Shown: positions 29,349 to 53,467 of the stretch, one piece after another | Layout of the letters: each line of letters begins with the position of its first letter | How positions within the stretch are numbered: the stretch's first letter is position 1 | Source of the DNA: an uncultured Actinomycetota bacterium | Lineage (GTDB): Bacteria > Actinomycetota > UBA4738 > HRBIN12 | Length of the DNA stretch: 64,000 nt | Reading direction: 5' to 3' | NCBI GenBank assembly: GCA_963784055.1 | Contig: CAWAPY010000012.1 | Coordinates: 174,865-238,864, forward strand | Position numbers and translations under genes: made by a program | The notes under the pieces: model-generated | The model's input: the letters and a program-made list of their open reading frames with translations, nothing else | Databases searched by the model: none | What the model was told of the DNA's origin: nothing

Positions 29349-31346
29349 ATGCGCCGACAACGCCTCGAGCTGGTGGCGGCGAGTTTCCTGATGCTCTTCG
29401 TCGAGCTGGTCGCGATCCGGTGGTCCGGCGCCTGGATCGTGCACCTGTCGTACTTCGCCAACTTCGTCCTGCTGGGCAGCTTCCTCGGCATCGGGATCGG
29501 ATTCCTTCGGGCCCACAAGGGACCTGACCTGTTCGCGTGGTCCCCGGTGGTGATCGCCCTCTTCCTCGGTCTCGTCAGCGCCTTCCCCGCGCAGATCGAC
29601 CGCACCGGCGGGGACCTCGTGTATTTCGGCGTGCGGCAGACGGGACTTCCGGCGTGGGTCCTGCTGCCTGTCGTGTTCTGTGCGACCGCGGCATCCCTCG
29701 CGACCGTGGCCCACGGGGTCGCCGTCAGGTTCGCTCGGTTCCCGCCACTCGAGGCGTACCGGCTCGACATCCTTGGATCGATCCTCGGCATCGTGGTGTT
29801 CTCCGCCCTCGCGTTCACGGGAACGGGGTCGCTCGCTTGGGGTGTCATCATCGTTGCGACGAGCCTCTGGCTGCTGGGGAGAGCCAGCCTGCTCCAGTGG
29901 GTCGCGTTGGGCGCGCTCCTGGCCGTGCTCGCGCTGGGCACCTTCCGGTACGAGACGATCTGGTCTCCGTACTACCGACTCCGCGTGGGGCACGCGCGGG
30001 ACACGGTCCTCGTCGACGCGAACGGCGTCCCTCATCAGGCCGCGATCAGGACGCAGGGGACCGACTACGAGATCCCCTACGAACGCATCGCCACGGAGCC
30101 CGACCGCGTGCTCGTCATCGGCGCGGGGAACGGGAACGACGTATCCGTGGCACTGCGCCAGGGTGCTTCCCGCGTGGACGCGGTGGAGATCGACCCGAAG
30201 CTGATGGAGATCGGTGAGCGATTCCATCCGGAACGACCGTACGCCGACCCTCGGGTTCGGCAGGTCGTCGACGACGGCCGGGCATTCCTCGAGCGGACCG
30301 ACGACCGCTACGACCTCATCGTGTTCGCCCTTCCGGACTCGCTCACGCTGCTCAGCGGGCAGTCCGCGGTTCGTCTCGAGAGTTACCTCTTCACGCGGGA
30401 GGCCTTCCAAGCCGCGGCCGATCACCTCGACCCCGACGGTGCGTTCACGATCTACAACTTCTACCGAGAGCAGTGGCTGGCCGATCGGCTGGCGGGAACG
30501 CTCACCGAGGTGTTCGGCGAACGCCCCTGTTTCGACCTGGGCGAGAGCAAAGGCGGAGAGGAGGTAGGTCGTCTCAGCGTGTTCGTGGCGAGCGCTGACC
30601 CGACGGTCCTCCGTTGCGAGGAGCGATGGGACCCGCGAGACCGCTCCGTCGTCGTCCCCGCCGTGGACGACCGACCGTTCCTGTACCTGCAAGAGCGATC
30701 GATCCCAACCCGCTACGTCGTCGCGCTCGCGCTCGTGCTGCTCGCATCCATGGTGTTCGTCCGAGTCGGCGGCGGGTCGTTCCGCCCGATGCTCCGGTAC
30801 GTGGACCTCTTCTTCATGGGCGCGGCGTTCCTCCTCCTCGAGACGAAGAGTGTCGTGCAGTTCGCACTGCTGTTCGGAACCACATGGTTCGTCAACTCGC
30901 TCGTGTTCGTCGGCGTGTTGCTCTCCGTCCTGCTCGCCATCGAGGTGGAGCGGAGGATGCGTATCGCTCGGCCGGGACTCCTCATGGGGATCCTGTTCAT
31001 CGGGCTCGCCATCGGGTGGTTGATCCCCACGGGATCGCTGCTCGGCCTGCCGATCGCCCCTCGACTCCTCGCCGCGGTCGCGCTCGCGTTCTTCCCGATC
31101 TTCATCGCGAACCTGATCTTCGCGGAGCGGTTCCGCGACACCGTGGATCCGACCGCCGCCTTCGGCGCGAACCTCCTGGGTGCGATGGTTGGCGGCACGC
31201 TCGAGTACCTGTCACTCCTCACCGGGTTCCGAGCGCTCTTGTTCCTCGTCGCCGCGCTCTACGCAACGGCATACGTCTTGTCTCCACGAACCAGCGGGCA
31301 GGAGGTACCCGCGGGGTCCGGTCACGCGGCCGGTCCAAGCGGCTGA
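29349..31346 (+). CDS. Membrane-embedded spermidine-synthase-like SAM methyltransferase
   Basis: TM domains flank a class I MTase: WSPYY, VLVIGAGNGNDV, AVEIDP, DDGRAFL..YDLIVF, ESYLFTREAF, DDRPFLY, FFMGAAFLLLET, NLLGAMVGG. Confidence 0.85.
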   Translation: MRRQRLELVAASFLMLFVELVAIRWSGAWIVHLSYFANFVLLGSFLGIGIGFLRAHKGPDLFAWSPVVIALFLGLVSAFPAQIDRTGGDLVYFGVRQTGLPAWVLLPVVFCATAASLATVAHGVAVRFARFPPLEAYRLDILGSILGIVVFSALAFTGTGSLAWGVIIVATSLWLLGRASLLQWVALGALLAVLALGTFRYETIWSPYYRLRVGHARDTVLVDANGVPHQAAIRTQGTDYEIPYERIATEPDRVLVIGAGNGNDVSVALRQGASRVDAVEIDPKLMEIGERFHPERPYADPRVRQVVDDGRAFLERTDDRYDLIVFALPDSLTLLSGQSAVRLESYLFTREAFQAAADHLDPDGAFTIYNFYREQWLADRLAGTLTEVFGERPCFDLGESKGGEEVGRLSVFVASADPTVLRCEERWDPRDRSVVVPAVDDRPFLYLQERSIPTRYVVALALVLLASMVFVRVGGGSFRPMLRYVDLFFMGAAFLLLETKSVVQFALLFGTTWFVNSLVFVGVLLSVLLAIEVERRMRIARPGLLMGILFIGLAIGWLIPTGSLLGLPIAPRLLAAVALAFFPIFIANLIFAERFRDTVDPTAAFGANLLGAMVGGTLEYLSLLTGFRALLFLVAALYATAYVLSPRTSGQEVPAGSGHAAGPSG

Positions 31347-31380
31347 GGGAAGACGCACTGCGGTGAGAGCGACTCGCTCC

Positions 31381-32343
31381 CTATCCCTGCACGTGTTCCT
31401 CAGGGGCATCGGTCATCGATCCGCGCATCCACTCGATCGTGTTCGCGAGCCCTTCGCGGAGGGGGACTCGCGGCGTCCACTCAAGGAGATCGCGCGCGAG
31501 GGTGGTGTCGGGTCGTCGCATCTCGGGATCATCGACCGGCCGTTGCGTGTAGCTGATCGAGGAGCCGCTGTCAGCGAGATCCCGGATGAGCTCGGCGAGC
31601 TCGCCCATCGAGATCTCCTCCGTGTTCCCGAGGTTGATCGGCCCCATGAGATCGGTGTTGACGGCCCGCCAGATGCCTTCGACCAGGTCCTCGACGTAGC
31701 ACAGCGAGCGCGTCTGGGAGCCATCTCCGTGGACGGTCATCGGTTCGCCCAGAAGGGCCTGATGGATGAAGGTCGGTACCGCCCGCCCGTCTCCATGACG
31801 CATCCTCGGGCCATAGGTGTTGAAGATCCGGGCGATCCGAACCGCCGTCCCGTGCACCCGGTGGTACGCCATCGTGGCCGCTTCGGCGAACCGCTTCCCT
31901 TCGTCGTAGACCGAGCGCGGTCCGATCGGGTTCACGTTCCCCCAGTAGGTCTCCGGTTGAGGATGCACCTTCGGATCTCCGTAGACCTCCGACGTGGACG
32001 CCAGGAAGAGACCGGCGTGCTTCGCGTGCGCGAGACGGAGGCAGTGCAGGGTGCCGAGCGCGCCGACCTCGAGCGTCGGGATCGGGTGCAGGAGGTAGTC
32101 GCGAGGGGACGCGAGAGATGCGAAGTGGAACACCCAGTCCACGGGACCGTCCACGTCCGCCCCGCGCGAGATGTCCGCTTCGTGGATCGTGAACCGGTCG
32201 CTCGACAGGGCGTCCGAGAGGTTCGCCGTTGCCCCTGTGAGCAGGGAATCGATGCAGACGACCTCCCAATCCTCGGCGAGGAGCCGGTCGCAGAGATGGG
32301 ACCCGACGAAGCCGGCTCCTCCCGTGACGACGGCGCGCATCAT
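31381..32343 (-). CDS. UDP-glucuronate decarboxylase (UDP-xylose synthase)
   Basis: TGGAGFVGSHL, ASTSEVYGDP..HPQPETYWGNVNPIGPRSVYDEGKR, RIFNTYGPRM, DDP..RRPD. Confidence 0.92.
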   Translation of the reverse strand: MMRAVVTGGAGFVGSHLCDRLLAEDWEVVCIDSLLTGATANLSDALSSDRFTIHEADISRGADVDGPVDWVFHFASLASPRDYLLHPIPTLEVGALGTLHCLRLAHAKHAGLFLASTSEVYGDPKVHPQPETYWGNVNPIGPRSVYDEGKRFAEAATMAYHRVHGTAVRIARIFNTYGPRMRHGDGRAVPTFIHQALLGEPMTVHGDGSQTRSLCYVEDLVEGIWRAVNTDLMGPINLGNTEEISMGELAELIRDLADSGSSISYTQRPVDDPEMRRPDTTLARDLLEWTPRVPLREGLANTIEWMRGSMTDAPEEHVQG

Positions 32344-32352
32344 CCTCGAAGG

Positions 32353-33367
32353 CTAACCGGCGGTGACGCCGGGTCCGCGCGGCGGGGGTGAGAACGTGGT
32401 CGCGAGCCGCTCCGGGTCTTCCCCGCGTTGCTCGATCTGCGCTCGATCCACCTGGCCGAGGAACCGTCCCGCCTCCGCAGATGTACGGGATCTGTTCCGG
32501 ATCGAAACCCATCAGCGATGCGCCGACCGTATCGGCGGCGACCGGGTCGTCCGCGAAGACCAAGACTCCCGACCCGATGGGCTCGCCCGAGATCGGCCCG
32601 TTGCCCTCCATCCCGACGATCCCGTCGATGATCGCGTAGGCAGGCCGCACGGAACCGGCGATGTCCAGGATCGACTGCTCGATCCCCGCCCAGTGCAGGA
32701 CGTTCTTCGGCCAGCCGTAGACCCTGCCGGGCAAGGTCCCGAAGAGGTTCTTGAGCGAAAGGGTGACGCCGGCCCAGTGGTGCGTCTTCATCTTCGGCAT
32801 CGAGACGACCACGTCGGCGTCGAGCACAGGTGTCGGGAGCCACAGCTCCCCGAGGTCGGTGTAGTGAGAACGCAAACGCACCCGACGGATGGCGGCGGTG
32901 TTCAGGTCGACGAACGTCGCGTCCACATCGGCGAGGACGTCGGTGAGCCCGGAACGCGTCACCACGTCCTGGACGTCGCGCCGGTGGCCCGGTCCCTCCC
33001 CGACGCGGACGGAGGTCGCACCCAAGCGTCGGAGCGCGAGCACCGAAGCTGCGATCAATCGCGGGTCCGTGTTGACGGCCGTGGTGGGATCGAACTCCAC
33101 GAGGTTCGGCTTCAACAGGACGTTCGCTCCACGGACGTCCGCTCCGATCGCGCGGAGCCCGTCCAGTACGGTCGCCTCGAGCGGTCCGTCGTAGTCGGAG
33201 GCGGCCAGGACGGCGACGCGCGCGTCCCCTGGTGGAGGGAACGCCGCTTCGTCCCAGCTCTCGGGCTGCCGCAGGAGGGCCCGAAGCCCGAGACCGCTCG
33301 CGAGCGCGACCGCGGACCCGGCGGCGGCCCCCCGAAGGAACGTCCGGCGATCGACGTCACGGCTCAT
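32353..33367 (-). CDS. DUF362 domain protein with Tat signal, frameshift near 32480
   Basis: DRRTFLRG twin-arginine signal; VLLKPNLVE, PKMKTHHWAGVTLSLKNLFG, DGIVGMEGNGP, DPVAAD. Confidence 0.85.
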
Positions 33368-34179
33368 GCCGCGCCCCTGGGCATCGGCGCGTCCAAGGCA
33401 AGAGCGGCCCACGCGAGAGCGACGCCGTCGCCGAGCAGGCCGGTATCGGCGATGAGGTGCTCGAGCTCGATCCGGACGGCCCGTGCGTCTGCGGCCGCGT
33501 CGTGGGTGCGGAACGCCGCCAGTGCGGTCGCCAGTGAGAGACCACCCGCGGATTCGTCTCGCCAGATGCGGCGCAGGGTGTCCAGGCCACGGTCCTCGAG
33601 GTCGTGGTCCAGACCGGACAGGCCGACCAGCGAGATCGCCGTGGTTTGCACGAACGGTGGCAGATCCACTCCGAGGACCTCACGGTTCCCGTAGTTCCAC
33701 CCACCCCCCACGCACTCGCGGTCGCGGAGAAGGTTCGCCGCGTCCTCGATCCTGGCGGACGACGGCCGTGCAACCCGAAGCGCCCAGAGCGCGCGCGCGG
33801 TGGGCTCCACCCACGAGGCGGTCCCGCGCGTCCACGCCCAGCCGATCGCCGATTCATCGATCGGAGTGGCGGCGGTGGAATCGACGCGAGCCGCCCGAGA
33901 CGCCTCGAGGGAGTCCAGCGCGCGCTCGCGCTCGGCCCCCGGGCCGAGCGCGAGCGCGCCCAATCCGGTCGCGGAGTCGTTCACGTACGGGCCCACGACG
34001 GTCGCGAACGAGCCGTCGTCGCGCTGGTGCTCGGCCAGCCACCTCCGGGCTCGCTCATCGCTCAGGGCGAGGGCGGCCAGGGCCGTCGGCTCCGGCTCGC
34101 TCGGCTGACCGAGACGCGGCCCGAATCCTCCATCAGCGTTCTGCAGGCGGGCGACGAGGCTGGCGGTGTCGATCGGCAT
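33364..34179 (-). CDS. Prenyltransferase/squalene-cyclase repeat (alpha/alpha barrel) protein
   Basis: QNADGGFG, EPTALAALAL, QRDDGSF, GWAW...SWVEPT, GGWNYGN. Its stop overlaps the DUF362 start. Confidence 0.75.
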   Translation of the reverse strand: MPIDTASLVARLQNADGGFGPRLGQPSEPEPTALAALALSDERARRWLAEHQRDDGSFATVVGPYVNDSATGLGALALGPGAERERALDSLEASRAARVDSTAATPIDESAIGWAWTRGTASWVEPTARALWALRVARPSSARIEDAANLLRDRECVGGGWNYGNREVLGVDLPPFVQTTAISLVGLSGLDHDLEDRGLDTLRRIWRDESAGGLSLATALAAFRTHDAAADARAVRIELEHLIADTGLLGDGVALAWAALALDAPMPRGAA

Positions 34180-34347: not shown

Positions 34348-34378
34348 TTCGTTGAGGATCGGTGACGAAGGGAACGAC

Positions 34379-35779
34379 GTGAAGCTGTCGGTATTGATGC
34401 CCGTCTACAACGAGGCACGAACACTGCGGACGATCGTTCGGCGCGTCCTGGACGCTCCCGTCGACGGGGACTTGGAGCTCGTCGCGATCGATGACGGAAG
34501 CACCGACCATTCGTTCGAGGTCCTGCAGGAGCTGGCATCGTCGGACGACCGCATCGTCGTCCTCCGACACTCGGTCAACCGCGGAAAGGGAGCCGCCATC
34601 CGTACCGGGATCGCCCGGATGACTGGGGATGTCGCGGTGGTTCAAGACTCCGACCTGGAATATGACCCCGCGGAGTTCCCTCGGTTACTCAAGCCGATCG
34701 TGGAGGATCGAGCCGACGCGGTCTTCGGCTCGCGTTTCGCGGCGAGCCCCGAGCGCCGGGTGCTCCTGTACTGGCACTCTCTCGGGAACCGGGTCCTCAC
34801 CTGGCTCACCAACATCCTCAACGACCTGAACCTCACCGACATGGAGACCTGCTACAAGGCCGTGCGGGCAGACATCCTCAAGGATCTCCGGCTCAGCAGC
34901 GAGCGGTTCGGGATCGAGCCGGAGCTCACCACGCGCCTGGCGCAGGCGGGCGCCAGGATCTACGAGGTGCCGATCTCCTATCACGGCCGCACATATGCCG
35001 AGGGCAAGAACATCGGTTGGCGCGATGGGGTGCAGGCGATCTGGCTGCTCTTCAAGTTCCGTTTCGTCGACACGAGGTTCACGGAGGACCACGGCCGCGC
35101 GGCCCTCGAGAGCCTTGGCACCACACCGCACATCTCCCGATGGATGGTGGAGCAGTTCGACGGATCGATCGGGGACCGGGTACTGGAAGCCGGGTCCGGC
35201 ATCGGCAATCTCACGCCGTTGTTGTTGGACAGGGATCGGATCGTGGCGCTCGACGTCGACCGCTCGTACGTGCGCCGACTCGACCACCGGTACGGACATC
35301 TCGAGAACTTCACGGTGATCGAGGCCGACCTCGAGGATCCCGACCTCTTCTCGGAGCTGGAGAAGGAGGACCTCGATACCGTCGTCTGCGTCAACGTGCT
35401 CGAGCACCTGGATCGGCCGGACATCGCCGTGCGAGGGTTCCATCGGATCCTCCGGCCCGGTGGCAGAGCGCTCGTCCTGGTCCCGGCCCACGGCTCTCTG
35501 TATTCGGCGATGGACAAAGCGATCGAACACCGTCAGAGATACGAGGGCCCAGATCTCCGCGCGCTCTTGGAAGATGCGGGTTTCGAGGTGGAACGGCTGT
35601 CGCAGTTCAATCGCCTCGGCGTCGTCGGCTGGTCCGTCAATCGTTGGAGAGGGAAGACGTCGATCAGCCGGCCTGAGGTCTTCGCATTCCGCTTGATGTT
35701 GCCGCTCGCCCGCACCCTCGAACGGGTGGGAGGCCTTCCGGGCCTGAGCTGGATCGCGATCGCGCGGAAGGCCGAGTGA
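34379..35779 (+). CDS. GT2 (polyprenol-phosphate glycosyltransferase-like) fused to class I SAM methyltransferase
   Basis: LSVLMPVYNE, IDDGSTD, NRGKGAA, QDSDLEYDP, TDMETCYK, then VLEAGSGIG and VNVLEH..ILRPGG. Confidence 0.9.
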   Translation: MKLSVLMPVYNEARTLRTIVRRVLDAPVDGDLELVAIDDGSTDHSFEVLQELASSDDRIVVLRHSVNRGKGAAIRTGIARMTGDVAVVQDSDLEYDPAEFPRLLKPIVEDRADAVFGSRFAASPERRVLLYWHSLGNRVLTWLTNILNDLNLTDMETCYKAVRADILKDLRLSSERFGIEPELTTRLAQAGARIYEVPISYHGRTYAEGKNIGWRDGVQAIWLLFKFRFVDTRFTEDHGRAALESLGTTPHISRWMVEQFDGSIGDRVLEAGSGIGNLTPLLLDRDRIVALDVDRSYVRRLDHRYGHLENFTVIEADLEDPDLFSELEKEDLDTVVCVNVLEHLDRPDIAVRGFHRILRPGGRALVLVPAHGSLYSAMDKAIEHRQRYEGPDLRALLEDAGFEVERLSQFNRLGVVGWSVNRWRGKTSISRPEVFAFRLMLPLARTLERVGGLPGLSWIAIARKAE

Positions 35780-35816: not shown

Positions 35817-36902
35817 GTGACCCGCAGTGGGATTCCTGCGTGGCTCGTAGGGGTCGCCGGCCTCTTGATCGGCATCGCGATCGCGCTTCCGACCTTGATC
35901 AAGCACGAGATGGATCCGACGATCTTCGTCGCCCTCGGTGAGGGATCCACGGTCGAGACCGAGTACGCGATCCGACTCCTCGGTGATGTGACCACGCGGC
36001 AGGGCCTTGGGCACGATGGGAGGTTCTTCTTCGCTCAGGCGAACGACCCGTGGTACATCGAGCCGGAGGTGCACGCCACGGTCCTCGATGAGCCACGGTA
36101 TCGAGCGCAACGGATGCTCTTCCCATCGGTCGCCGGTGGGTTCGGTTTCTTCCCGCCGGGCGTCGTCGCCTGGTCGATGCTCGTGACGAACCTGCTCGCG
36201 CTGGGACTCGGGGCCTACCTGGCCGCCCTGCTGGCGCTGCGTTGGGGCGGAGCCGCGTGGCTGGGTCTCGCGGTACCCATGAACATCGGATTGATCTTCG
36301 AGCTCGACATCGGCGGGGCAGGGATCCTTGCCTACGCGTGCTGCCTCGGCGCGGTCTCAGCCCTCGTCACGGAGCGGATCGGTCTGGCATCACTCTTGTT
36401 CGCGGCCGCTGCGCTGAGCCGGGAGGTGATGCTGCTGTTCGCCATCGGGGTGTTCGTCCTCTGGTGGTTGGAGGAGCGACGGTTCGTGTGGCAGATCGTG
36501 ACGGCCCCGATCCTCGCGACGGCGGGCTGGTACGTATACCTTTGGTACCGACTGATGGGCATCTCCGGTGTGGGTGGCAAGACCGCGAACTTCGCCCCCC
36601 CATTCGTCGGGATCGTCGAGTCGTTCCGGTCGTGGCTCATGGATCCGATCGATCTTGTCGTGAGTCTGGTCTTGGTCGCGATCGTCGTCGCGCTCGTCCC
36701 CCTCACACTCCGGAGCCGCTTGCCGCTCGCGTGGGGCGCTCTCCCGTTCATCGCGTTGGCGACCGTGCTGTCGGTCGAGGTGTTGCGCGAGCCCTTCAAC
36801 CTTTCCCGAGCGCTCGCCCCTGTCTTCACGGCGATCCCGTTCCTCATCTTCGGTCCGAAGCGTGTGGCGACAGGTGCCGATCGGCTCGGACGAGCCCCAT
36901 GA
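35817..36902 (+). CDS. GT-C-like polytopic membrane protein, paralog 1
   Basis: GHDGRFFFAQANDP, YRAQRMLFP, ALSRE; many TM helices. Confidence 0.7.
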   Translation: MTRSGIPAWLVGVAGLLIGIAIALPTLIKHEMDPTIFVALGEGSTVETEYAIRLLGDVTTRQGLGHDGRFFFAQANDPWYIEPEVHATVLDEPRYRAQRMLFPSVAGGFGFFPPGVVAWSMLVTNLLALGLGAYLAALLALRWGGAAWLGLAVPMNIGLIFELDIGGAGILAYACCLGAVSALVTERIGLASLLFAAAALSREVMLLFAIGVFVLWWLEERRFVWQIVTAPILATAGWYVYLWYRLMGISGVGGKTANFAPPFVGIVESFRSWLMDPIDLVVSLVLVAIVVALVPLTLRSRLPLAWGALPFIALATVLSVEVLREPFNLSRALAPVFTAIPFLIFGPKRVATGADRLGRAP

Positions 36903-38066
36903 CGCGGGCCCGCTCCTCTCAGAGTCGAGATCATGCACGGGCTCCCCGAACCGATCCGGGCTCCCCGCATCCCTCCGGACGCGGGATGTCCGGGGAGCAG
37001 CTCCCAGCCTCAGCCTTCGGGATCATCGGTCTCGCGATCGGTGTGGTGATCATGCTTCGCGTCCTGATCCCCAGCGGCATGGATCCCACCGTCTTCATCG
37101 GGTTCGGCGAGCAAGCGCCCGTCCAGACCGGATACGCCCGTGCACTCTTGGGCGACGTGGAGACTCGCCCCAATCTCGGTCACGACGGCAAGTACTTCTT
37201 CGCTCAGGCGAACGACCCTTGGTACCTGCAGCCCGAACAGCATGCGGCGGTACTCGACCGGCCCCTGTATCGGGGTCAACGGATGCTCTTCCCCATGATC
37301 GCGGGGGGGTTCGGCTTCTTCCCCCCGGAGGTCGTGGTGTGGTCGATGCTGGTCACGAACCTCCTCGCATTGGGGGTCGGATCGATGCTGGCAGCGCGTC
37401 TGGCATCGCTCTGGGATGCGCCTACGTGGCTGGGCCTCGCGGTGCCGGTGAATCTCGGTCTGCTCTACGAGATCGTGATCGATGGATCCGGTGTGGTTGC
37501 CTATGTCTTCTGTCTCGGCGCCTTGTATGCGCTCGCCACCGATCGAACATCGATGGCTTCAGCCCTGTTCGCCGCCGCGGCTCTGAGTCGCGAGGTCATG
37601 GTGGCATTCGCCGTCGGGGTGTTCGTCCTCTACCTGTACCAACATCGAGCCCTGTGGCGCATCGTGTTGGTGCCGCTGGCAGCGATGGCGGTCTGGTACC
37701 TCTATCTCAGATCTCGATTGGCGGGGGTATCTGGAGTCGGCGGCAGCCTCTCGGCCTTCGCTCCGCCGTTCGTGGGGATCTGGCAGGCCATGGAGTCGTG
37801 GGCCAGGAAGCCGGGGGATCTCGCCGTCAGCTCTCGTGATCCTCGTCATCGTGGTCACGTTCACGATCCTGGCATGGCGGAGGCGGTTGCCGATCGCGTG
37901 GGGCGCTCTCCCATTCGTGATCCTGGCGACCATGCTCTCCGTGCACGTGTGGCGTGAGCCCTTCGACCTCTCGCGGGCTCTCGTCCCGGTGTTCACGGCA
38001 GCCCCATTCCTCCTGGTCGTCGCTGACCGAAGGCCAACCGGCCATGCGGCCGACCGAGTGATGTGA
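36899..38066 (+). CDS. GT-C-like polytopic membrane protein, paralog 2, frameshift near 37832
   Basis: GHDGKYFFAQANDP, YRGQRMLFP, ALSRE, REPFDLSRAL; colinear with paralog 1. The start may instead be ATG 36986. Confidence 0.7.
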
Positions 38067-45178: not shown

Positions 45179-45235
45179 CTGAAATGCAGTGGAATACGGG
45201 ATTCCTTGGTGCATGGGGCGCTTCTATCGTTCCCA

Positions 45236-45290
45236 ACTGGCGGAGTAGCAGTTCGCCTGTGGGGCGAAAGCCCCGAGGACGGGATCTCGG
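45236..45290 (+). ncRNA. Candidate structured 5' leader of flp copy 1 (no known family recognised)
   Basis: ACTGGCG..CGCCTGT stem, GGGGC-GAAA-GCCCC tetraloop hairpin, and an overlapping CCGAG..CTCGG stem directly before the SD. Confidence 0.45.
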
Positions 45291-45308
45291 AGGAAGGAGG
45301 TGTATCGG

Positions 45309-45516
45309 ATGCTTAAGCTCTACACGGGTCTTCAGACTTGGTGGGCCGACCTCAAGGCTCGCGCCACGGAGGAGCACGGCGCGACCGCGGTCGAGTACGC
45401 ATTGATGGTCGCTCTGATCGCAGTGGTCGATCATCCTGGCGGTGACCTTCATCGGCACGTCTGCTTCCACGAAGTTCAGCGAGGTTGGATCGGCAGTCAA
45501 CAGCGCCGGTTCGTAG
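45309..45516 (+). CDS. flp: Flp/Fap type IVb pilin, copy 1 (one extra C near 45428)
   Basis: EHG|ATAVEYALMVALIAVV; differs from copy 2 by GTGGTCGATC versus GTGGTGATC. Confidence 0.9.
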
Positions 45517-45528
45517 CTCCAACCGATC

Positions 45529-45593
45529 GAGCGGCCATCGGCCGCTCTCGCCGCTCTCGCCGTCAGGCGCAAGGGCGGCGAGAGCGGTCGAGA
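45529..45593 (+). terminator. Tandem hairpins after flp copy 1
   Basis: GAGCGGCC-ATC-GGCCGCTC, then CCGCTCTCGCCGT...GCGGCGAGAGCGG. Confidence 0.6.
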
Positions 45594-45820
45594 CCACCGG
45601 CATCCCCATCGGGATCGCTCATTCGACCCCGCAGAACCACTCGCCAGAGCGCAACCGGATCCTGGCGACCTCTCCCACCGCAGCGCAGGGTCAGTCAGAC
45701 CTTCGCCCTACGTCGGCATCGTTACTCCAGGCACGAAAAGGTATCCCTTTGGGGGTTCCACTTCCGCACCCAACGGGGTACCATGCGGCGTCTTCTTCGG
45801 GCACTCCTCGAGAGGATGCG

Positions 45821-45836
45821 TACGTAGAAACACGTA
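45821..45836. promoter_or_regulatory. Palindromic NarL-type box upstream of flp copy 2
   Basis: TACGT-AGAAAC-ACGTA, same spacing to GGAAT-N5-ATTCC (45849-45863) and TATCGT (45883-45888) as in copy 1. Confidence 0.6.
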
Positions 45837-45893
45837 GACAACTCCAGTGGAATACGGGATTCCCTGGAGGATGGGGCGCTTCTATCGTTCCCA

Positions 45894-45948
45894 ACTGGCG
45901 GAGTAACGGTTCGCCAGTGGGGCGAAAGCCCCGAGGACGGGATCTCGG
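45894..45948 (+). ncRNA. Candidate structured 5' leader of flp copy 2
   Basis: Perfect ACTGGCG/CGCCAGT stem, GGGGC-GAAA-GCCCC hairpin, CCGAG/CTCGG stem. Confidence 0.45.
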
Positions 45949-45967
45949 AGGAAGGGAGGTGTATCGG

Positions 45968-46174
45968 ATGCTTAAGCTCTACACGGGTCTTCAGACCTGG
46001 TGGGCCGACCTCAAGGCCAGCGTCACGGAGGAGCGCGGCGCGACCGCGGTCGAGTACGCGTTGATGGTCGCTCTGATCGCAGTGGTGATCATCCTGGCGG
46101 TGACCTTCATCGGCACGTCTGCTTCGACGAAGTTCAGCCAGGTCGGATCGGCAGTCAACGGCGCCGGTTCGTAG
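45968..46174 (+). CDS. flp: Flp/Fap type IVb pilin, copy 2 (intact, 68 aa)
   Basis: MLKLYTGLQTWWADLKASVTEERG|ATAVEYALMVALIAVVIILAVTFIGTSASTKFSQVGSAVNGAGS; strong SD GGAGGTG. Confidence 0.95.
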   Translation: MLKLYTGLQTWWADLKASVTEERGATAVEYALMVALIAVVIILAVTFIGTSASTKFSQVGSAVNGAGS

Positions 46175-46186
46175 CTCCAACCGATC

Positions 46187-46231
46187 GAGCGGCCATCGGC
46201 CGCTCTCGCCGCCGCCTCAAGGCGGCGGCGA
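46187..46231 (+). terminator. Tandem hairpins after flp copy 2
   Basis: GAGCGGCC-ATC-GGCCGCTC and TCGCCGCCGCC-TCAA-GGCGGCGGCGA. Confidence 0.6.
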
Positions 46232-46244
46232 TAGGAGCCGATGG
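46217..46244 (+). promoter_or_regulatory. Sigma28-like promoter of tadE
   Basis: TCAAG-N15-GCCGATGG, 13 nt before ATG 46258. Confidence 0.6.
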
Positions 46245-46257: not shown

Positions 46258-46686
46258 ATGGGTGTGAGCGTGCGAAGCAAGCTGCGCCGGGAGGACGGGG
46301 CTGCCGCGGTCGAGTTCGCCTTGATCGTCGGGCTGCTCGCCGTCCTTATCTTCGGGTTGCTCGAGTACGGACTCGCGTTCTGGCAGGTGCAGAACCTGCG
46401 TTCCGCGGCCCGTGAGGGAGCGCGGGTGGCCGCGGTGCGCGGCGACGCCACCGCGGTGCGGAGTGCGATGGTCGATTCCTCCGCAGGCTCTCTGAGCGGA
46501 TCGTGGACGTACACACAGAATCGAACGTGCGACGGATCGACCGCGAACACGGGTCAGCAGGTGACGATCCAGATCACCAACAGCTCGCTGTCCGGACCGG
46601 TGCAGGAGGCCTTCCAGGTGTCCATCCCCTTCCTCCCGCCGCTCCAGCTCGACCCCGTCTTGCGAGGCAGCTTCCGCTGCGAATGA
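46258..46686 (+). CDS. tadE: TadE-like pseudopilin
   Basis: EDG|AAAVEFALIVGLLAVLIFGLLEYG...AAREGARVAAV; ends FRCE. Confidence 0.9.
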   Translation: MGVSVRSKLRREDGAAAVEFALIVGLLAVLIFGLLEYGLAFWQVQNLRSAAREGARVAAVRGDATAVRSAMVDSSAGSLSGSWTYTQNRTCDGSTANTGQQVTIQITNSSLSGPVQEAFQVSIPFLPPLQLDPVLRGSFRCE

Positions 46687-46693: not shown

Positions 46694-48066
46694 ATGAGGA
46701 GGCGACCCCCCTTGGCCGATCCCAACACGCTCCGCGACGACGAACGCGGAGCGACCGCCGTCATCGTCGTGTTGAGCCTGATCGCGCTGTTCGGATTGAT
46801 CGTGCTCACGGTGGACGTGGGGCAATTGCTCTTCCAGCGCCGCGGGATGGTGAACGCCTCGGACGCGGCGGCCCTCGCCGCCGCTCAGTCGTGCGCGGGG
46901 CTCGATGATTCCGACGTCCCGGAGGCGATGGCCGATACCTTCGCGGTGAACAACGTCGGCAGCGCCATCACGGCGGTCCCGAACATCACGGAGATGGTCG
47001 GATGCGACGGTCCGGCGTACGGCCACGTCAGCGTCGAATACGCGATGAACCAGGATCTCTTCTTCGCAGGCGTTCTGGGCTTCAACGGACCGGCCTCCGT
47101 GCGGACCGCCGCCACGGCCGGATGGGGTCCCGCCGGCGGCGCGAACCCGCTCCCGATCGTCGTCTACACGGGGAACGACCAGGGCAACTGCGACATCGAA
47201 GAGGGAACCCCGGCGGGGGTCCCGTGCTACCTCTGGTACGACAACGACCTGTTCGAGAACTCCGCGTTCGGGTTCCTGAACCTCTGCACCGCCACGGACC
47301 CCTGCACGCACGGGTGGGATGTCGTGTCGGATGCGAACTGCCCGAACGTGGGATCGAGCCTCCGTGACGACTGGATCCTCGGGCAACTGGACGGGCGGGC
47401 CCAACGAGCTCAACTACCCGGATCCGACCTACGTCTGTGTCGTCACGGGAGTCTCATCGGCCAACTGGCAAGACCTCGAGCGGCGGGCCGGATTCCCGGA
47501 TGAGCGATTCCGACCTCATCTTCCCGATCGATGATTGCACCACCAACGTCGACAACAACGGGAACATCGTCGGCTGCGACGCGTTCCCGAACAAGTACAA
47601 CATCATCGGGTTCATCACCCTCCACCTCGACGAGGTGCTGCAGAGCGCCGCGGAGTGGGGCGGCATCGCGCAGACCTCCTGCCAGCGGAACAACCTCGAC
47701 GTGACGCCCGGGTTGGTCGTGCCGTTGTCGTCCTTCCCGGGAGGGCAGTGCCCCAACGGGAACACGCCCACGGGTGTGGTCGACTTCAGGATCGACAGCC
47801 AGACGTCGAGCCCGAACTGGACGTACGACAACCTGAACAAGCAGTTCACGTGGACGGGACCGGCGGACAGGGTCGACGTGAACTTCGACTGGTGGCTGGA
47901 CGGCGAGTGTGGCCAACCGCCTGCGAACTCCAGTGCCGTCTGCATCAAGGTCCACACGGTGAAGGTTCGCTTCGGTGGAACGGATCCCGGCGGAGGGGCG
48001 GACTTCGGAACGCGGGCGATCAGGCTCTGCGACCTCGCGATCGGGAGCTGTCCCGAACAAGATTGA
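46694..48066 (+). CDS. TadG-like Cys-rich pilus protein, frameshifts near 47380 and 47500
   Basis: ERG|ATAVIVVLSLIALFGLIVLTVDVG..NASDAAALAAAQSC; continues NWTGGPNELNYPDPTYVC and LIFPIDDC...GGGADFGTRAIRLC in other frames. Confidence 0.85.
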
Positions 48067-48076
48067 GCGAGAACAC

Positions 48077-48104
48077 TGAAGCCGGCACGGCGTCCGGCCG
48101 ATAG
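48077..48104 (+). promoter_or_regulatory. Sigma28-like promoter of the cpaB-tadC operon
   Basis: TGAAG-N15-GCCGATAG in the tadG-cpaB gap. Confidence 0.65.
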
Positions 48105-48144: not shown

Positions 48145-48939
48145 ATGAGGTCACGAGGTCTGGTGGTAGCGATTGCGATCGTGCTCGCCGTGGGCGCGGC
48201 TGCGGCCGTGGTTCTGTACACGCAAGGGGTGAAGGAAGACGCGGTGGAGGGCGGTCAGCTCACGACCGTCATCGTTGCGACCCAGGAGATCCCGGCCAAT
48301 CAGCGTCTGGACCCCCTGATCGAGCAGGGCCTGTTCACGGAGATCGACGTCCCCGCGGACGCGCTCGTCGGTGGGGCCGTCACCACCCTCGCCGAGCTCC
48401 AGGGAGCCACCACCACGACGCCGATCCTGGCGAACGAGCAGATCTCGACCTCCCGACTCTCTACCTCGGGAAGGCCCCTCAACATCATCGGTGTGAGCGA
48501 AGGCCACATCGGCCTCTCCGTGGAGCTCGATGCTCCTCAGGGCGGCGTCGGTAACATCCAGCCCGGCGACAACGTCGCAGTCTTCGCCACGTACCAGGGA
48601 GTCACATCATCCCCGGCAACCTGCGTCAGTACATCACGCAGCCAGCGGACGCGCAGACAGGCGGCCAAGAAGGACCTGCCCGACTTCACGGTGACACTCG
48701 TCCCGACCGTCCGGGTTCTCCGGATCCAGAACCCCCCGGTGGACAGCGAGACCGGACGGAGCGACAGCGCGCGGATCCAGGTCACGTTGGATCTCTTGCC
48801 GCAGGACGCGCAGAACCTGGTCTTCGCGCAGGAGAACGCGCGGATCTGGCTCGGCCTCCTTCCGCCGGATGAGGACGGGACGCAGCCACAAGCTTCGACC
48901 GTTCCGATCGAGCTCCTGCTTGGAGCGAAGCTCGGATGA
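48145..48939 (+). CDS. cpaB: Flp pilus assembly protein CpaB/RcpC
   Basis: N-terminal TM, SAF-like VIVATQEIPA, GVGNIQPGDNVAVFAT, VTLDL.PQDAQNLVFAQE..IWLGLL. There are probably compensating indels at 48600-48660. Confidence 0.88.
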   Translation: MRSRGLVVAIAIVLAVGAAAAVVLYTQGVKEDAVEGGQLTTVIVATQEIPANQRLDPLIEQGLFTEIDVPADALVGGAVTTLAELQGATTTTPILANEQISTSRLSTSGRPLNIIGVSEGHIGLSVELDAPQGGVGNIQPGDNVAVFATYQGVTSSPATCVSTSRSQRTRRQAAKKDLPDFTVTLVPTVRVLRIQNPPVDSETGRSDSARIQVTLDLLPQDAQNLVFAQENARIWLGLLPPDEDGTQPQASTVPIELLLGAKLG

Positions 48940-50157
48940 CGGACGCCAGCGTCGTCGCCGTCGGGACGCCGCAATCGTTCCGCCAACAGGTCGCCAGGGC
49001 CGTCGAGATGGGCCCGGACGAGGTGGGTTGGGTGCAGTCTGCAACGGCTGCAGAGGAGTTGTTGATCAACGCCTTCCAGCCCATCGACGTCCTGGTCCTC
49101 TCGCCCGAGGTCAAGGAGCCCGACGCGCTCGGCCTCGCCGAGTTCGTCGGGCGCCAGGCCCCCGGGACCGCCATGGTGCTGGTCCGGGATCACACCTGGA
49201 ACGGACTGTTGCCGGCGGCGATGCGGGCGGGTATCCGCGACGTCGTCGACATGACCCAGGGGACCGAGGAGCTCCGCGATGCCGTGGAGCGCGCGATCGT
49301 CTGGGCGGGGAACCTCCGCTCGGTCAACGTCACTGCGACGGACGGGCAGCCGGTCACTCGCGGCAGGATCCTGTCGGTCTTCTCCTCCAAGGGAGGGACC
49401 GGCAAGACCTTCCTGACGTCCAACCTGGCCACCGCGATCTCCGAGGTCACCGGGCAGGACACCGCCGTGGTGGACCTCGACATCGACATGGGCGACGTCT
49501 TCACGTACTTCGGCCGGGAGCCGACCGCCACGATCCAGGACCTGATGGAGCTGGGCGAAGGCGCCGAGCGCTCCCGGATCAAGCAGATCGGCGTCCAGCT
49601 GTCGGAGCACCTGTGGGGCTTCGGCGCCCCGCCGGACCCGGCGGCTGAGGCCCCGGCGGGCGAGGCGATCGGGAAGTTCCTGCGCGCGCTCCGCAACGAG
49701 TTCAGCTGGGTCGTCGTGGACGCCTCGGTGGACTACTCGGACTCCGCGCTGGTGTGCTTCGATCTGTCCGACGCGATCTGCCTGGTGACGGGCCTCGACG
49801 TCGTCGGCGTGAAGCACCTGTCCAAGTCGCTCGACACCCTGCTCACGATCGGCCTGCCGCGCGAGCGGTTCCGGGTCGTCTTGAACCGGGCGGACTCCAA
49901 GGTCGGCCTCGACGCCTCCGACGTGGAGCGCGTGATGAAGATCAACGTGGACGCGATGATCCCGTCCAGCCGGCTCGTGCCGACGTCCCTCAACAAGGGC
50001 CGGCCGGTCGTGCTCGACGAGCCCAACTCCGAGGTGGCGCAGGCGGTCCGGCAGCTCGCCACAGCGTTTCGCCGGCCAGGCCGAGATGGTCGCCGCCGGC
50101 GAGGCGGGGATCGACACCTCGAACAAGAAGAAGCGCAAGTTGTTCGCTCGAAGCTGA
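48936..50157 (+). CDS. cpaE: CpaE/TadZ pseudo-receiver plus MinD-like ATPase, frameshift near 50070
   Basis: Deviant Walker A SSKGGTGKT, VVDLD..GDV, VVLNRA. Removing one T gives the end ..NKKKRKLFARS* at 50157. Confidence 0.88.
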
Positions 50158-50201: not shown

Positions 50202-51518
50202 ATGTCCCTGGCAGACAGGCTGCAGAAGGCCCAACAGAAGGATCGGATCGCCGAGGTCCGCATCCGGGTGCAGGAGCGCCTGGTCGAGAGCCTCGGACCC
50301 CGTCTCTACGACGCGACCCTGTCCGACACCGAGCTCGAGGGGATGGTGCATCAGCGCCTCCGCGAGCTCCTCGACGAGGAGGAGGGACCGCTCGCCGCGC
50401 AGGAGAAGCTCCTGATCGTCCGGCAGATCGGTGACAGCGTCCTCGGTCTCGGCCCGCTCGAGCCCTACATCCGCGACCCGGAGGTCACCGAGGTCATGGT
50501 GAACAACTGGGACACGATCTACGTCGAGCGCTCGGGCAAGCTGTTCTGGACCGGCACGAAGTTCCACGACGAGGGCCAGCTCCGCCGCACGATCGACAAG
50601 ATCGTCGCGAAGGTCGGTCGTCGCGTGGACGAGGCGAGCCCCATGGTGGATGCGCGGCTGCCCGACGGTTCACGTGTGAACGCGATCATCCCGCCGCTCG
50701 CGATCGACGGCCCCACGCTCACGATCCGGAAGTTCGCCGCCGACCCGTACCAGGCGGACGACCTGGTGGAGTTCGGCACGATGAGCTCGGCGGTGTCGAA
50801 GTTCCTCGAGTCCTGCGTCCGCGGCCGCATCAACGTGATGGTGGCCGGAGGAACCGGCGCGGGGAAGACGACGACGCTGAACGTGCTTTCGTCCTTCATC
50901 CCCGACGACGAGCGCATCGTCACGATCGAGGACGCGGCGGAGCTCAAGCTCCAGCAGCCGCACGTGGTCCGTCTCGAGGCTCGTCCGCCGAACATCGAGG
51001 GCAAGGGCCAGGTCTCGATCCGCGACCTCGTCCGGAACTCGTTGCGGATGCGGCCCGACCGCATCGTCGTCGGTGAGGTCCGTGGCGCCGAGGCGCTGGA
51101 CATGCTCCAGGCCATGAACACCGGTCACGACGGCTCGATCTCGACGATCCACTGCAACTCGCCGCGTGACGCCCTGTCCCGTCTCGAGACCATCACGATG
51201 ATGGCGGGGATGGACCTCGGCTCTCGCGCGATCCGCGAGCAGATCGCCTCGGCGATCCAGCTGATCGTCTACCAATCGCGGCTCAAGGACGGCACCCGCC
51301 GCTTCACGCACGTGACCGAGGTCGCCGGGATGGAGGGCGAGGTCATCACGCTCCAGGACATCTTCCTGTTCGACTACTCGGCCGGCCTGGACGATGAGGG
51401 TCGTTTCCGGGGCCGCCTCAAGTCCACGGGTCTGCGGCCCAAGTTCGTCGAGAAGCTCCAGGAGCGCGGCGTCAACATCGACCCTGAGCTCTTCGCGCTG
51501 GAATCGAAGGGCCGATAG
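50202..51518 (+). CDS. tadA: Tad pilus ATPase TadA/CpaF
   Basis: SD AGGAGG before ATG 50202; [56 protein letters not shown]. Confidence 0.95.
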
Positions 51519-51521
51519 ACG

Positions 51522-52530
51522 ATGCTGGCAGCAGACACCTTCTTCTCGAGCCAGGCGATGCTGGCGGTCGTCGTCGCGCTCGTCGCGCTGGCGGCGTTCG
51601 CCCTCGGGTGGCTCCTGTTGGGGACCGCCGCTCGCGTCAAGGCGGACCGTGACATGGCGGCGAGGATGGCCGCGATCGGCCGCCCGGTGCCGCAGCAGAC
51701 CGCGTCCGCGGTCGGCAAGCCGGGCTCCGGCTGGATCCCCGAGAGCGTTTCGTCCTTCGGCGAGCGGTTCGCCAAGGCGCAGGGCTTCGGAGAGAAGCTC
51801 GATGCCCAGCTCGAGGCCGCCGGTGTCAGCCTCCGGTCGGGTGAGTTCGTGGTCGCTACCGTCGGGGCCGCGATCGTGGGCGGGGTGCTGGGCGCGGCGT
51901 TGCTTCAGGATCCTCTCCTGGCGGGTGTGATCGGTCTCCTCAGCGGGGTTGTGCCGATCGCTCGTCCTCCGGATGTCCCTCGGTCGCCGAGGGGACAAGA
52001 TGCGCGAGCAGCTGCCGGACGTCCTGACCATCATGGCGTCGTCGCTGCGCGCGGGACATTCGTTCCTCCAGGCGCTCGACACCGTGGCCCGGGAGATCCC
52101 GGCGCCAGCGGATGTGGAGTTCCAGCGGCTCGTGGCCGAGATCCGACTGGGCCGTCCCCCGGAGGATGCCCTCGAGTCGTTGGCGGACCGCGTCGGGAGC
52201 GCCGACTTCCGCTGGGCCGTCCTCGCCGTGAACATCCAGCGCGAGGTCGGCGGCAACCTGGCAGAGATCCTCGACAACGTGTCGGACACGCTCCGGGAGC
52301 GCGCGATGATGCGCCGCCAGATCCGGGTGCTCACGGCCGAGGGCAGGCTCTCCGCCTGGGTCCTGGCGATCCTCCCGTTCGGGATCGCCCTCTACATGTT
52401 CGCCGTCAACCCGGAGTACATCTCGTTGCTCTTCACCACACAGGTCGGCCTGATCATGTTGGGCACTGGCGGGGTCCTCATGGTCCTCGGGATCCTCTGG
52501 ATGAGAAAGATCGTGGATATCGATGTCTGA
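51522..52530 (+). CDS. tadB: TadB (T2SS-F family), frameshift near 51958
   Basis: QLPDVLTIMASSLRAGHS, IQREVGGNLAEIL, LTAEGRLSAWVL. Confidence 0.9.
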
Positions 52531-53467
52531 GGTCTGGTTGGTACTCGCTGTCGGATGCGTCGCCGGAGCCATCGTGCTCTTCGGCATCTTCTTCGACCTG
52601 AGCCAGTCCGAGCGCCGTCGGGCCGTTCGGATGCTCGAATCGCAGGTCGCGGGCACGTCGAGCGAGAACGTGAACCTCCGGGAGCAACATCTGTCCGAGA
52701 GCTTCGGCGCCCGGATCATCGTGCCGGTGGTCGCCGGCGCCACGAGGGTGGCTCGACGCGTCACACCGATCGATGCGCGAGATCGCCTCGCTCGCAAGCT
52801 CTTGTTGGCAGGAACGCCCGCGGGATGGGACGCGGAGCGCGTCCTCGCGTTCAAGATCATCGGACTGGTCTCCGGGATCGTCTTGGCGTTGGTCGTGGCG
52901 TCCGTCATCGGGGACGTCACCCCGTTCATCCGGATCGTGCTGTTCGGGTTGCTGGGATTCGTCGGGTTCGTTGCGCCCGACTCCGTGTTGAACCGGCGCG
53001 TCGACGAGCGGCAGAAGGAGATCCTCCGCACGCTCTCGGACACCCTCGACCTCCTGACGATCAGCGTGGAGGCGGGACTCTCGCTGAACGCCGCGATCGC
53101 GCAGGTCGTGCAGAACGTGCCCGGCATCCTCTCCTCCGAGTTCGCTCGGATGCTCCAGGAGATCCAGCTGGGCGTGCCGCGAGGCGACGCGTTCCGCAAC
53201 CTCGCCGAGCGCACCGACGTCGAAGAGCTGAACGCGTTCGCGCTGGCGATGATCCAGGCCGACGTCTTCGGCGTCTCGATCGCCAGCGTCCTGCGGACCC
53301 AGGCGCAGCAGCTGCGGATCAAGCGGCGACAGGCGGCCGAGGCGAAGGCGCAGCAGACGCCCGTGAAGATCGTGTTCCCGCTGATCCTGTGCATCCTGCC
53401 CGCGCTGTTCGTCGTGATCGTCGGGCCGGGCGCGATCCAGATCTGGGAACAGTTCATCAACGCGTGA
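52523..53467 (+). CDS. tadC: TadC (T2SS-F family)
   Basis: LSDTLDLLTISVEAGL, IQADVFGVSIA, AQQTPVKIVFPLILCILPALFVVIVGP. Confidence 0.93.
   Translation: MSEVWLVLAVGCVAGAIVLFGIFFDLSQSERRRAVRMLESQVAGTSSENVNLREQHLSESFGARIIVPVVAGATRVARRVTPIDARDRLARKLLLAGTPAGWDAERVLAFKIIGLVSGIVLALVVASVIGDVTPFIRIVLFGLLGFVGFVAPDSVLNRRVDERQKEILRTLSDTLDLLTISVEAGLSLNAAIAQVVQNVPGILSSEFARMLQEIQLGVPRGDAFRNLAERTDVEELNAFALAMIQADVFGVSIASVLRTQAQQLRIKRRQAAEAKAQQTPVKIVFPLILCILPALFVVIVGPGAIQIWEQFINA

Follow-up and report, generated by a model that had tools for sequence, protein, structure and literature searches.

Tad loci of Actinobacteria (Micrococcus luteus, Bifidobacterium and the mycobacterial Rv3654c-Rv3660c type) comprise flp, tadE/tadG-like and cpaE-like genes together with tadA, tadB and tadC. 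To our knowledge, a regulator trio, sigma28 promoters and flp operator boxes have not been described for those loci, and our literature search returned no such report. Control by the sigma28-type factor WhiG is documented for a type IVa pilus cluster in Rubrobacter, where WhiG-type promoters drive the cluster and RsiG together with cyclic di-GMP (c-di-GMP) sequesters WhiG (PMC8325347). WhiG regulons predicted across the Actinomycetota take in type IV pili and c-di-GMP enzymes as well as response regulators (WhiI, BldM), in a source whose main text contains none of the words Tad, Flp or glycos- (bioRxiv 10.64898/2026.01.14.699351). Here we analyze a 64,000-nucleotide window (contig C12, 174865-238864) of an uncultured actinomycetotal genome (2.94 Mb, 20 contigs, 70% complete, ∼69% G+C). 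At ∼41.5-53.5 kb of the window, the core of the locus under study encodes a Tad/Flp (type IVc) pilus. It belongs to an uncultured lineage of the Actinomycetota that apparently has no flagella, and its sequence features indicate that it is probably wired into the WhiG (sigma28) regulon, with a tier of regulators and candidate operators. A first-pass annotation of the DNA had proposed an "undescribed system," which is too strong because WhiG-driven pili and WhiG-driven atypical regulators are already in print (PMC8325347; bioRxiv 10.64898/2026.01.14.699351). The locus is a variant of known WhiG regulons (Rubrobacter pili, Streptomyces WhiI) and not a categorically new system. Its features, including three regulators designated RR1 to RR3, are as follows.

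39471-41477, minus strand: DUF255/thioredoxin-domain protein (PF03190, 261.2 bits), a conserved neighbor divergent from RR1
41510-41537, plus strand: sigma28/WhiG-type promoter of RR1 (CTCAT 41510-41514, N16, GCCGATG 41531-41537)
41548-42213, plus strand: RR1, atypical NarL-type regulator (acidic pair GE; acceptor Asp replaced by Glu; Lys replaced by Ala)
42230-42883, plus strand: RR2, atypical NarL-type regulator (acidic pair AS; Thr/Ser replaced by Ala; Asp and Lys kept)
42991-43653, plus strand: RR3, atypical NarL-type regulator (acidic pair EP; acceptor Asp lost, VAMGLA; Lys kept)
43654-45111, minus strand: GT-C-fold glycosyltransferase of 485 aa, between RR3 and flp and divergent from flp
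45163-45205, plus strand: flp1 operator region (Box 1 TACGTCGAAGTACGTA 45163-45178; Box 2 GGAATACGGGATTCC 45191-45205)
45309-45516, plus strand: flp1, Flp gene, frame broken by an extra base at ∼45428
45821-45863, plus strand: flp2 operator region (Box 1 45821-45836; Box 2 45849-45863)
45968-46174, plus strand: flp2, intact Flp prepilin with processing site RG/ATAVEY (PF04964, 52.5 bits vs cut-off 32.2)
46193-46244, plus strand: hairpin with 25-nt arms, after flp2 and ahead of tadE
46258-46686, plus strand: TadE pseudopilin (PF07811, 50.8 bits)
46694-48066, plus strand: TadG-like protein (PF13400, 34.9 bits), split by an indel at ∼47500
48076-48103, plus strand: sigma28/WhiG-type promoter of the cpaB operon (CTGAA 48076-48080, N16, GCCGATA 48097-48103)
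48145-48939, plus strand: CpaB/RcpC (PF16976, 50.4 bits)
48936-50157, plus strand: CpaE/TadZ ParA-like ATPase (CbiA, 48.7 bits), extra base near 50059-50061
50202-51518, plus strand: TadA secretion ATPase (PF00437, T2SSE, 220 bits)
51522-52530, plus strand: TadB (PF00482, T2SSF, 81 bits), extra base at ∼51961
52523-53467, plus strand: TadC (PF00482, T2SSF, 71.4 bits)

Genes were called from third-position G+C and families assigned with Pfam and NCBIfam, and all gene classes that the first-pass annotation had named across 29349-53467 are present where it placed them. The Flp processing site, the TadA, TadB, TadC and CpaE proteins, the TadE and TadG pseudopilins and CpaB are features of the Tad/Flp (type IVc) class. 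The tad gene set is that of other actinobacterial Tad loci, with no secretin and with a prepilin peptidase that is presumably encoded elsewhere, and the Flp pilin has 45 residues. The core order, RR1-RR2-RR3, flp, tadE-tadG-cpaB-cpaE-tadA-tadB-tadC, is conserved. Across 40-kb comparisons with nine relatives (G000 denotes the genome under study, G0xx the relatives and Lxxx individual loci), six genomes of the genus keep the longer order of primase-like gene, cyclophilin, DUF255, RR1-3, GT-C, flp, tad genes and pheA; two others (G003 and G026) are interrupted by contig ends, and G025 has no regulators. The regulators are linked to tad genes in all 17 Tad loci with at least 5 kb of flank on each side, as well as in five of five loci that have no GT-C gene. 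Four of the five genomes of the genus searched for it (G007, G013, G016, G024) also encode elsewhere a second TadA-like ATPase (51-52% identity), so that another system of the Tad-like or type IV kind is probably present in these organisms.

Two conserved promoter elements would tie this core to a sigma28-type factor. Both the RR1 and the cpaB sites fit the consensus given for actinobacterial WhiG homologs in bioRxiv 10.64898/2026.01.14.699351 (-35 T(A/C)AA or CTCA, N16-17, -10 GCCGAnnn). CTCA(T/G)-N16-GCCGATG is retained before RR1 in all six relatives compared, with a varying spacer sequence, and CTGAAG...GCCGATA(G/A) is retained before cpaB in eight of nine, with varying spacer and flanks. 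We also counted the pattern [CT]T[CG]A[GTA]-N15-17-GCCGAT[AG] in 78 published loci encoding GT-C relatives, after dropping two records of genomes flagged as unpublished. The bipartite pattern precedes RR1 in 25/28 loci (26/28 for the -10 alone or with the -35), cpaB in 8/20 (10/20) and RR3 in 4/29 (14/29), compared with 0/28 for RR2, 0/17 for tadE, 0/16 for tadG, 0/22 for cpaE, 0/20 for tadA, 0/21 for tadC, 0/24 for DUF255, 1/26 for GT-C and 0/12 for pheA, counts that are descriptive and not tests because the pattern was shaped on sequences included in them and the loci are kin. In these counts no other non-coding stretch of the locus is kept as widely as the RR1 promoter footprint.

The heptamer GCCGATA itself has 12 occurrences in the window, where 4.17 would be expected (none of 100 shuffles reaches 12), and 170 in the genome. 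With an upstream element (CTNAR-N14-16-GCCGATA) there are 11 genomic sites, and nine control heptamers have 0-1, except for four with one that is five times more frequent. At many genomic sites the first G of the heptamer lies 12-18 nt upstream of a start codon, a spacing that suits leaderless mRNAs; the RR1 ATG is 10 nt downstream of its heptamer, so that the RR1 mRNA is likely to be leaderless. The claim that shared GCCGATA motifs link the parts of the region holds for the enrichment and for cpaB, but not for RR1, which has GCCGATG, nor for the gene at 33364-34179, where only the -10 half is present. Complete sigma28-type sites with GCCGATA in the window lie upstream of cpaB and of an orphan type IV pilin gene; a further site at 51511 overlaps the tadA stop codon and is too near the tadB start. 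In other lineages (L054, L056, L060, L062, L068, L073, L088) a separate GCCGATAGG element precedes RR3, in many cases preceded in turn by CTCAG at a distance of 16 nt; the matching stretch upstream of RR3 in this window is degenerate.

The genome encodes both the sigma factor and its partner, which the first-pass annotation had proposed to look for. A genome-wide profile search returned one FliA/WhiG-family sigma factor above the curated cut-off (TIGR02479, 270.9 vs 189.6 bits), which scores 333.7 bits on the WhiG equivalog NF004935, just below its cut-off of 343, and is flanked by xerC-like and M23-peptidase-like frames. The RsiG homolog was first located via the published c-di-GMP motif with Q or H allowed; with Q only, the motif search of the genome returned nothing real. 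It scores 66.5 bits on PF22802 (cut-off 27), contains one exact E(x)3S(x)2R(x)3H(x)3D motif with a near-motif in the other helix, and aligns over residues 26-170, near full length, to PDB 6pfj_T (E=1.6e-18), a chain deposited as "AmfC protein" that we take to be Streptomyces RsiG in its complex with WhiG. The same genome, at 70% completeness, has no FHIPEP and no flagellin match.

The three regulators each comprise a receiver and a GerE output domain. RR2 was aligned to NarL (1a04), RR1, RR2 and RR3 were then aligned to one another, and six to seven orthologs of each were examined. The RR1 Lys is never present, and E, D or G stands at the RR1 acceptor position; the acidic pair of RR2 is never present within the genus; and the RR3 Asp is never present. 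Judged from these alignments, the phosphorylation pockets are degenerate in every ortholog examined. No HisKA/HATPase kinase domain was found by Pfam among the locus proteins scanned, and the description of three NarL/LuxR regulators with broken receivers and no kinase therefore stands, with degeneration in three of three receivers. On NarL-family NCBIfam models the regulators have generic matches only, below cut-offs. The combination of receiver plus GerE, no adjacent kinase and a degenerate pocket is that of atypical orphan regulators of the BldM/WhiI type.

Candidate targets for these regulators lie upstream of the pilin genes. The two flp cassettes form a 395-nt direct repeat (45161-45554 and 45819-46212, 90-97% identical), and GGAATACGGGATTCC is found in each (two matches vs 0.01 expected), bearing out the first reading of two cassettes with palindromic boxes; the boxes are also conserved upstream of flp in relatives. 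There, before the first flp gene, Box 1 has the form TACGTA-N4-5-TACGTA, and Box 2 is GGAAT-N5-ATTCC in this genus and GGGAAAC-N-CGGAATTCC elsewhere, followed ∼20 nt downstream by a -10 element TA(T/A/C)C(G/T)T (TAnnnT). Box 1, Box 2 and the -10 are retained in relatives down to ∼37-42% GT-C identity. Among loci with flp and at least 330 nt upstream of it, Box 1 occurs in 27/32, Box 2 in 31/32 and both in 26/32, where each box has an expected background of 0.01 per 270 nt. Of the relatives with tad genes, G025 alone has no regulators, and it is also without both boxes and without the cpaB motif. In G025 (L029/L030) the direct repeat TCTAGACT(T)CTTGG occurs twice before cpaB and a TATAAT-like element precedes flp, and its control circuit appears, from these elements, to have been replaced.

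The cassettes also have potential RNA structure. The hairpin with 25-nt arms after flp2 is likely an attenuator or terminator before tadE, and a similar hairpin follows flp1 at 45538-45591. The flp leader (45236-45308 and 45894-45967) contains two small hairpins kept in relatives via compensatory changes and paired insertions; in one leader hairpin with covarying pairs, three of nine pairs change on both sides. An Rfam search of the flp region gave no real match, only two at chance level.

We propose that c-di-GMP-armed RsiG would release WhiG, and that WhiG-RNA polymerase would then transcribe the cpaB-to-tadC operon and RR1, the latter as a probably leaderless mRNA. By analogy with BldM and WhiI, RR1 and the presumably constitutive RR2 and RR3 would bind the boxes without phosphorylation. 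Box 2 would overlap the -35 position of the flp promoter, and regulator binding would turn on highly expressed flp, with the strong hairpin limiting read-through into tadE. The two-tier cascade suggested in the first pass is thus a good reading of the core (WhiG, RsiG, RR1 and cpaB promoters, orphan regulators, boxes), but not of the glycan enzymes that it had included.

The Rubrobacter radiotolerans (RsiG)2-(c-di-GMP)2-WhiG switch is similar in that a non-flagellated actinobacterium with WhiG and RsiG has sigma28-type promoters within a pilus cluster; that cluster is of the type IVa pil kind and its promoters were confirmed by start-site mapping (PMC8325347). By contrast, the pilus here is Tad/Flp (type IVc), a regulator tier would stand between sigma factor and pilin, the promoters are predicted from sequence, and RsiG aligns full-length to the twin-helix Streptomyces protein and not to the short single-motif form. 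The Streptomyces cascade from WhiG to WhiI/BldM, likened here by features only, is similar in that a WhiG-type promoter drives an orphan regulator of the NarL family whose receiver is degenerate, with additional NarL-type orphans alongside. Its output is sporulation genes, whereas here it is presumably the pilin gene, with three regulators in tandem. More speculatively, the sporulation cascade of Streptomyces may derive from an ancestral cascade that ran from sigmaWhiG through an atypical regulator to a pilus. The locus would add Tad pili to the known outputs of the WhiG-RsiG-c-di-GMP switch, which are type IVa pili in Rubrobacter and sporulation in Streptomyces, and would do so in an uncultured lineage of actinobacteria that is widespread in soil and rhizosphere. 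It would also place a tier of degenerate-receiver regulators under sigma28 outside Streptomyces, with candidate operators that are testable, and so bears on the origin of the Streptomyces developmental cascade.

Beyond DUF255, at lower coordinates, lies a variable island of putative glycan genes.

29349-31346, plus strand: membrane protein with spermine-synthase-like methyltransferase domain (PF01564, 42.6 bits), variable island
31381-32343, minus strand: UDP-xylose-synthase/4,6-dehydratase-like short-chain dehydrogenase/reductase (UXS; PF01370, 161.9 bits; NCBIfam matches all below cut-off)
32340-33367, minus strand: DUF362 protein with twin-arginine-translocation-like signal (PF04015, 167.6 bits), 1-nt frameshift near 32490
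33364-34179, minus strand: 271-aa protein, no Pfam match, prenyltransferase-like repeats read from sequence only
34352-35779, plus strand: fusion of a family 2 glycosyltransferase (GT2) and a methyltransferase (PF00535, 114.7 bits), nearest named families polyprenyl-phosphate sugar synthases
35817-36902 and 36862-38066, plus strand: tandem paralogous polytopic membrane proteins, the second frameshifted at ∼37800
38074-39432, plus strand: UDP-glucose 6-dehydrogenase (UGDH; PF03721, PF00984, PF03720), variable island

The synthesis of a sugar derived from UDP-glucuronic acid (UDP-GlcA), a GT2 and polytopic membrane transferases together recall lipid-linked sugar transfer of the ArnC/ArnT or AglJ type. 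Unlike those systems, all scores on named families here are below cut-offs (for the GT2-methyltransferase, AglJ, ArnC and PpgS), a methyltransferase is fused to the GT2, and DUF362 and the 271-aa protein are present. The tandem paralogs match NF046093 (AZOBR_p60025, "cell surface glycopolymer formation") at 102 bits, below its cut-off of 150. To judge from its gene content, which includes UDP-GlcA/UDP-pentose synthesis, the likeliest role of the island is to modify a glycopolymer or protein of the cell surface, and Flp could be the acceptor.

In Pseudomonas aeruginosa, the strain-variable membrane glycosyltransferases TfpW and TfpO adjoin the major pilin gene, and the sugar donor of TfpW is held to be a polyprenyl-phosphate pentose. 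The GT-C gene of our locus resembles them by position only, being strain-variable and directly beside the pilin gene. It differs from TfpO in that the 485-aa protein has no Pfam family, including the O-antigen-ligase (Wzy_C) domain of the TfpO/PglL type, and in that the pilin is a 45-residue Flp. The model of the protein (pLDDT 70.2, pTM 0.68) has GT-C proteins as all of its top 34 Foldseek matches (STT3, DPY19, AftA, ArnT, PglB, AglB, ALG, PimE, Pmt4). Of the "three GT-C-like proteins" proposed earlier only this one showed the fold; the tandem paralogs gave no Foldseek match at E<=0.001, with weak GT-C rows and a poor model (pLDDT 53.5). The gene occupies the same position beside flp in related loci and is found in 15 of 24 genomes of the genus, a count that takes in two genomes flagged as unpublished. 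It is cleanly absent from five of five inspected loci that are otherwise intact (DUF255-RR1-RR2-RR3-flp-tadE..., with both boxes), which argues that it is dispensable for the pilus.

Published GT-C loci with at least 5 kb on both sides (n=40) fall into 17 with at least three tad genes and 23 with no tad gene. All 17 Tad loci have at least two of the regulators and two have at least two of UGDH, UXS and GT2, a combination found in 19 of the 23 loci without tad genes, which are mostly labeled Chloroflexota. Members of the family thus appear to come either with a pilin locus or with a pathway for sugars derived from UDP-GlcA. In the Chloroflexota-labeled loci L075-L125, GT-C relatives of 35-41% identity adjoin UGDH, a UXS-like reductase and GT2, often with a spermine-synthase-like membrane methyltransferase nearby, and no tad genes lie within 10 kb.

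Pilin glycosylation by an accessory GT-C is possible but unproven. In a fuller version, the GT-C would be a strain-variable Flp-pilin glycosyltransferase using a polyprenyl-phosphate pentose from UGDH-UXS-GT2, with the island as donor source and glycosylated Tad pili in some strains; we hold this only tentatively and consider it rather doubtful. As part of it, the GT-C may share the flp control region, Box 1 lying 50-70 nt upstream of its start codon. The Caulobacter Tad pilus structure has no added density (PMC10710030), and Flp glycosylation is raised only as a possibility in a review (PMC6370729). Our literature search on Flp-pilin glycosylation and Tad regulation in Actinobacteria found no report of such a system. 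This large GT-C family of Actinomycetota and Chloroflexota metagenome-assembled genomes (MAGs) has two alternative contexts, the pilin gene and UGDH-UXS-GT2, which point to a candidate acceptor and to a donor.

The first-pass annotation had read the entire 24 kb as one integrated system in which the glycan enzymes make a xylosylated or methyl-glycosylated Flp pilus, a reading that we consider unlikely. In its favor are a GCCGATAG -10 at 34195-34188 (minus strand), whose first G lies 16 nt before the ATG of the gene at 33364-34179 and which is kept in G020, G015 and L053, though with no -35 element, and the GT-C enzyme being divergent from flp. That the island could supply the GT-C is argued best by the 19 sugar-linked loci among the 23 without tad genes, and they imply that GT-C and such a sugar pathway belong together somewhere. 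At the Tad locus the same genes are seldom together: at least two of UGDH, UXS and GT2 accompany just the two of 17 noted above, and the ∼9-kb glycan block between cyclophilin and DUF255 is found in two of nine compared relatives (G020 and G015), while neither UXS nor the membrane methyltransferase was seen here in any of the nine, G020 and G015 included. In genomes that have no such block, the GT2-methyltransferase is without a close ortholog (best 31-34% identity), the GT-C is missing from the five intact loci, and Flp C-termini (Ser/Thr) show no clean sorting by GT-C presence. The DUF362 and 271-aa gene pair stands without GT2 and UGDH, after the cyclophilin gene, at another place in L128 (G024) and in L053, which indicates that the island is itself a mosaic. 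Co-conservation of the 24 kb as one unit consequently fails, and in the neighborhoods of relatives the glycan genes are largely unlinked while regulators and tad genes are linked; the original observation is partly confirmed and its interpretation partly supported.

For the core alone, a reading other than WhiG control through orphan regulators would make RR1-RR3 ordinary two-component outputs of an unlinked kinase, perhaps repressors, with a minor or no role for the sigma28-like motifs. RR2 retains acceptor Asp and Lys, the DD pair survives in the RR1 orthologs of four genomes of the genus and the acceptor Asp in one, and a receiver-HisKA-HATPase protein is encoded behind a sigma28-type promoter elsewhere in the genome. 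However, no single RR1 or RR3 ortholog has a complete pocket, the RR1 Lys and the RR3 Asp are lost everywhere, RR2 has no metal-binding acidic pair in any genome of the genus, and the strong conservation of the RR1 promoter footprint is at odds with a minor role for the motif; we therefore regard this reading as quite improbable. A still plainer account is that the GCCGAT(A/G) elements are read by another sigma factor, or are chance or compositional, in a Tad cluster with housekeeping promoters. The genome does have other sigma-70-family matches, and the -35 elements here (CTCAT, CTGAA) deviate from the textbook TAAA, but the sites fit the actinobacterial consensus as given in bioRxiv 10.64898/2026.01.14.699351, are enriched over control heptamers, are conserved with variable spacers, and the pattern is near-absent at control genes other than RR3 (0-1 loci), so that we give this account very little credence. 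Several points nevertheless weigh against WhiG control of the Tad core. The link from regulators to boxes is a co-occurrence with a single negative case (G025), and RR2, with its Asp and Lys, could conceivably be phosphorylated by an unlinked kinase. The promoter and box patterns were derived partly from sequences later counted in kin loci, whereby the counts overstate independence, and the cpaB promoter is absent in about half of the more distant loci. WhiG is present in 39 of 41 relatives with no co-variation with pilus presence, a comparison that is uninformative because WhiG is so widely present. Prepilin peptidase (Peptidase_A24) has no match in the 70%-complete genome; it is present, unlinked, in five of five more complete relatives. 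RNA-library contigs from one study cover cpaE-tadC at 90-99% likeness, are a weak hint only in that they cannot show transcript starts or expression level, and may reflect DNA carry-over. Finally, the six frame-breaking indels at the locus, if real, would mean that it is decaying in this strain.

Single-base indels are frequent in the assembly, and six genes are each frame-broken by 1 nt: flp1, which has an extra base at ∼45428 relative to flp2, and, with the reading frame shifting mid-gene, those for DUF362, the second membrane paralog, TadG, CpaE and TadB. In relatives, both flp copies are intact in G020, tadG is uninterrupted in G020 and G015, and tadB is uninterrupted in G020. The best DNA runs among public sequencing runs share only 0.33 of the sampled words and thus represent related strains, not this strain. 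Contigs from these related strains are one base shorter at 50059/50061 and at 51961, and short-read contigs are two bases shorter across 47105-47766 (tadG). We treat the frame breaks as 1-nt assembly errors, with the flp1 break at 45428 bridged by none of the related-strain contigs listed. A reading of the flp1 break as phase variation or as a sign of a pseudogene was set aside, since at least five other genes have indels of the same sort. An 860-aa frame that would fuse CpaE to TadA was rejected as an artefact of one indel, the extra base near 50059-50061, because tadA is a separate open reading frame in 22/22 relatives (a count that takes in L049, a record of a genome flagged as unpublished) and the cpaE stop falls at residue 406 in four of four relatives read. 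It is an example of the spurious gene fusions that arise in indel-rich long-read MAGs.

Sigma28-type sites also occur away from the Tad locus. Further bipartite sites 12-18 nt before start codons were located on contigs C2, C3, C11, C12, C14 and C15 of the genome (L007-L013), where the genes behind them include that for the receiver-HisKA-HATPase protein, those for two paralogous bPH-domain membrane proteins and one for a secreted 319-aa protein, as well as one for a 983-aa membrane protein without a Pfam match; a Pfam search of candidate WhiG targets elsewhere in the genome mostly returned no family. Within the window, the orphan type IV pilin gene at 4265-4703 (minus strand, in the stretch 4265-4718) stands alone among unrelated genes, encodes the N-terminus GFTLIELMVV and is frameshifted after the hydrophobic helix; its promoter is a complete CTCAG-N16-GCCGATAG. 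At 18285-19151 (minus strand), GCCGATAG lies 14 nt before the start codon, upstream of a YkuD L,D-transpeptidase, as the -10 half only, with a -35-like CTTAG at 17-nt spacing.

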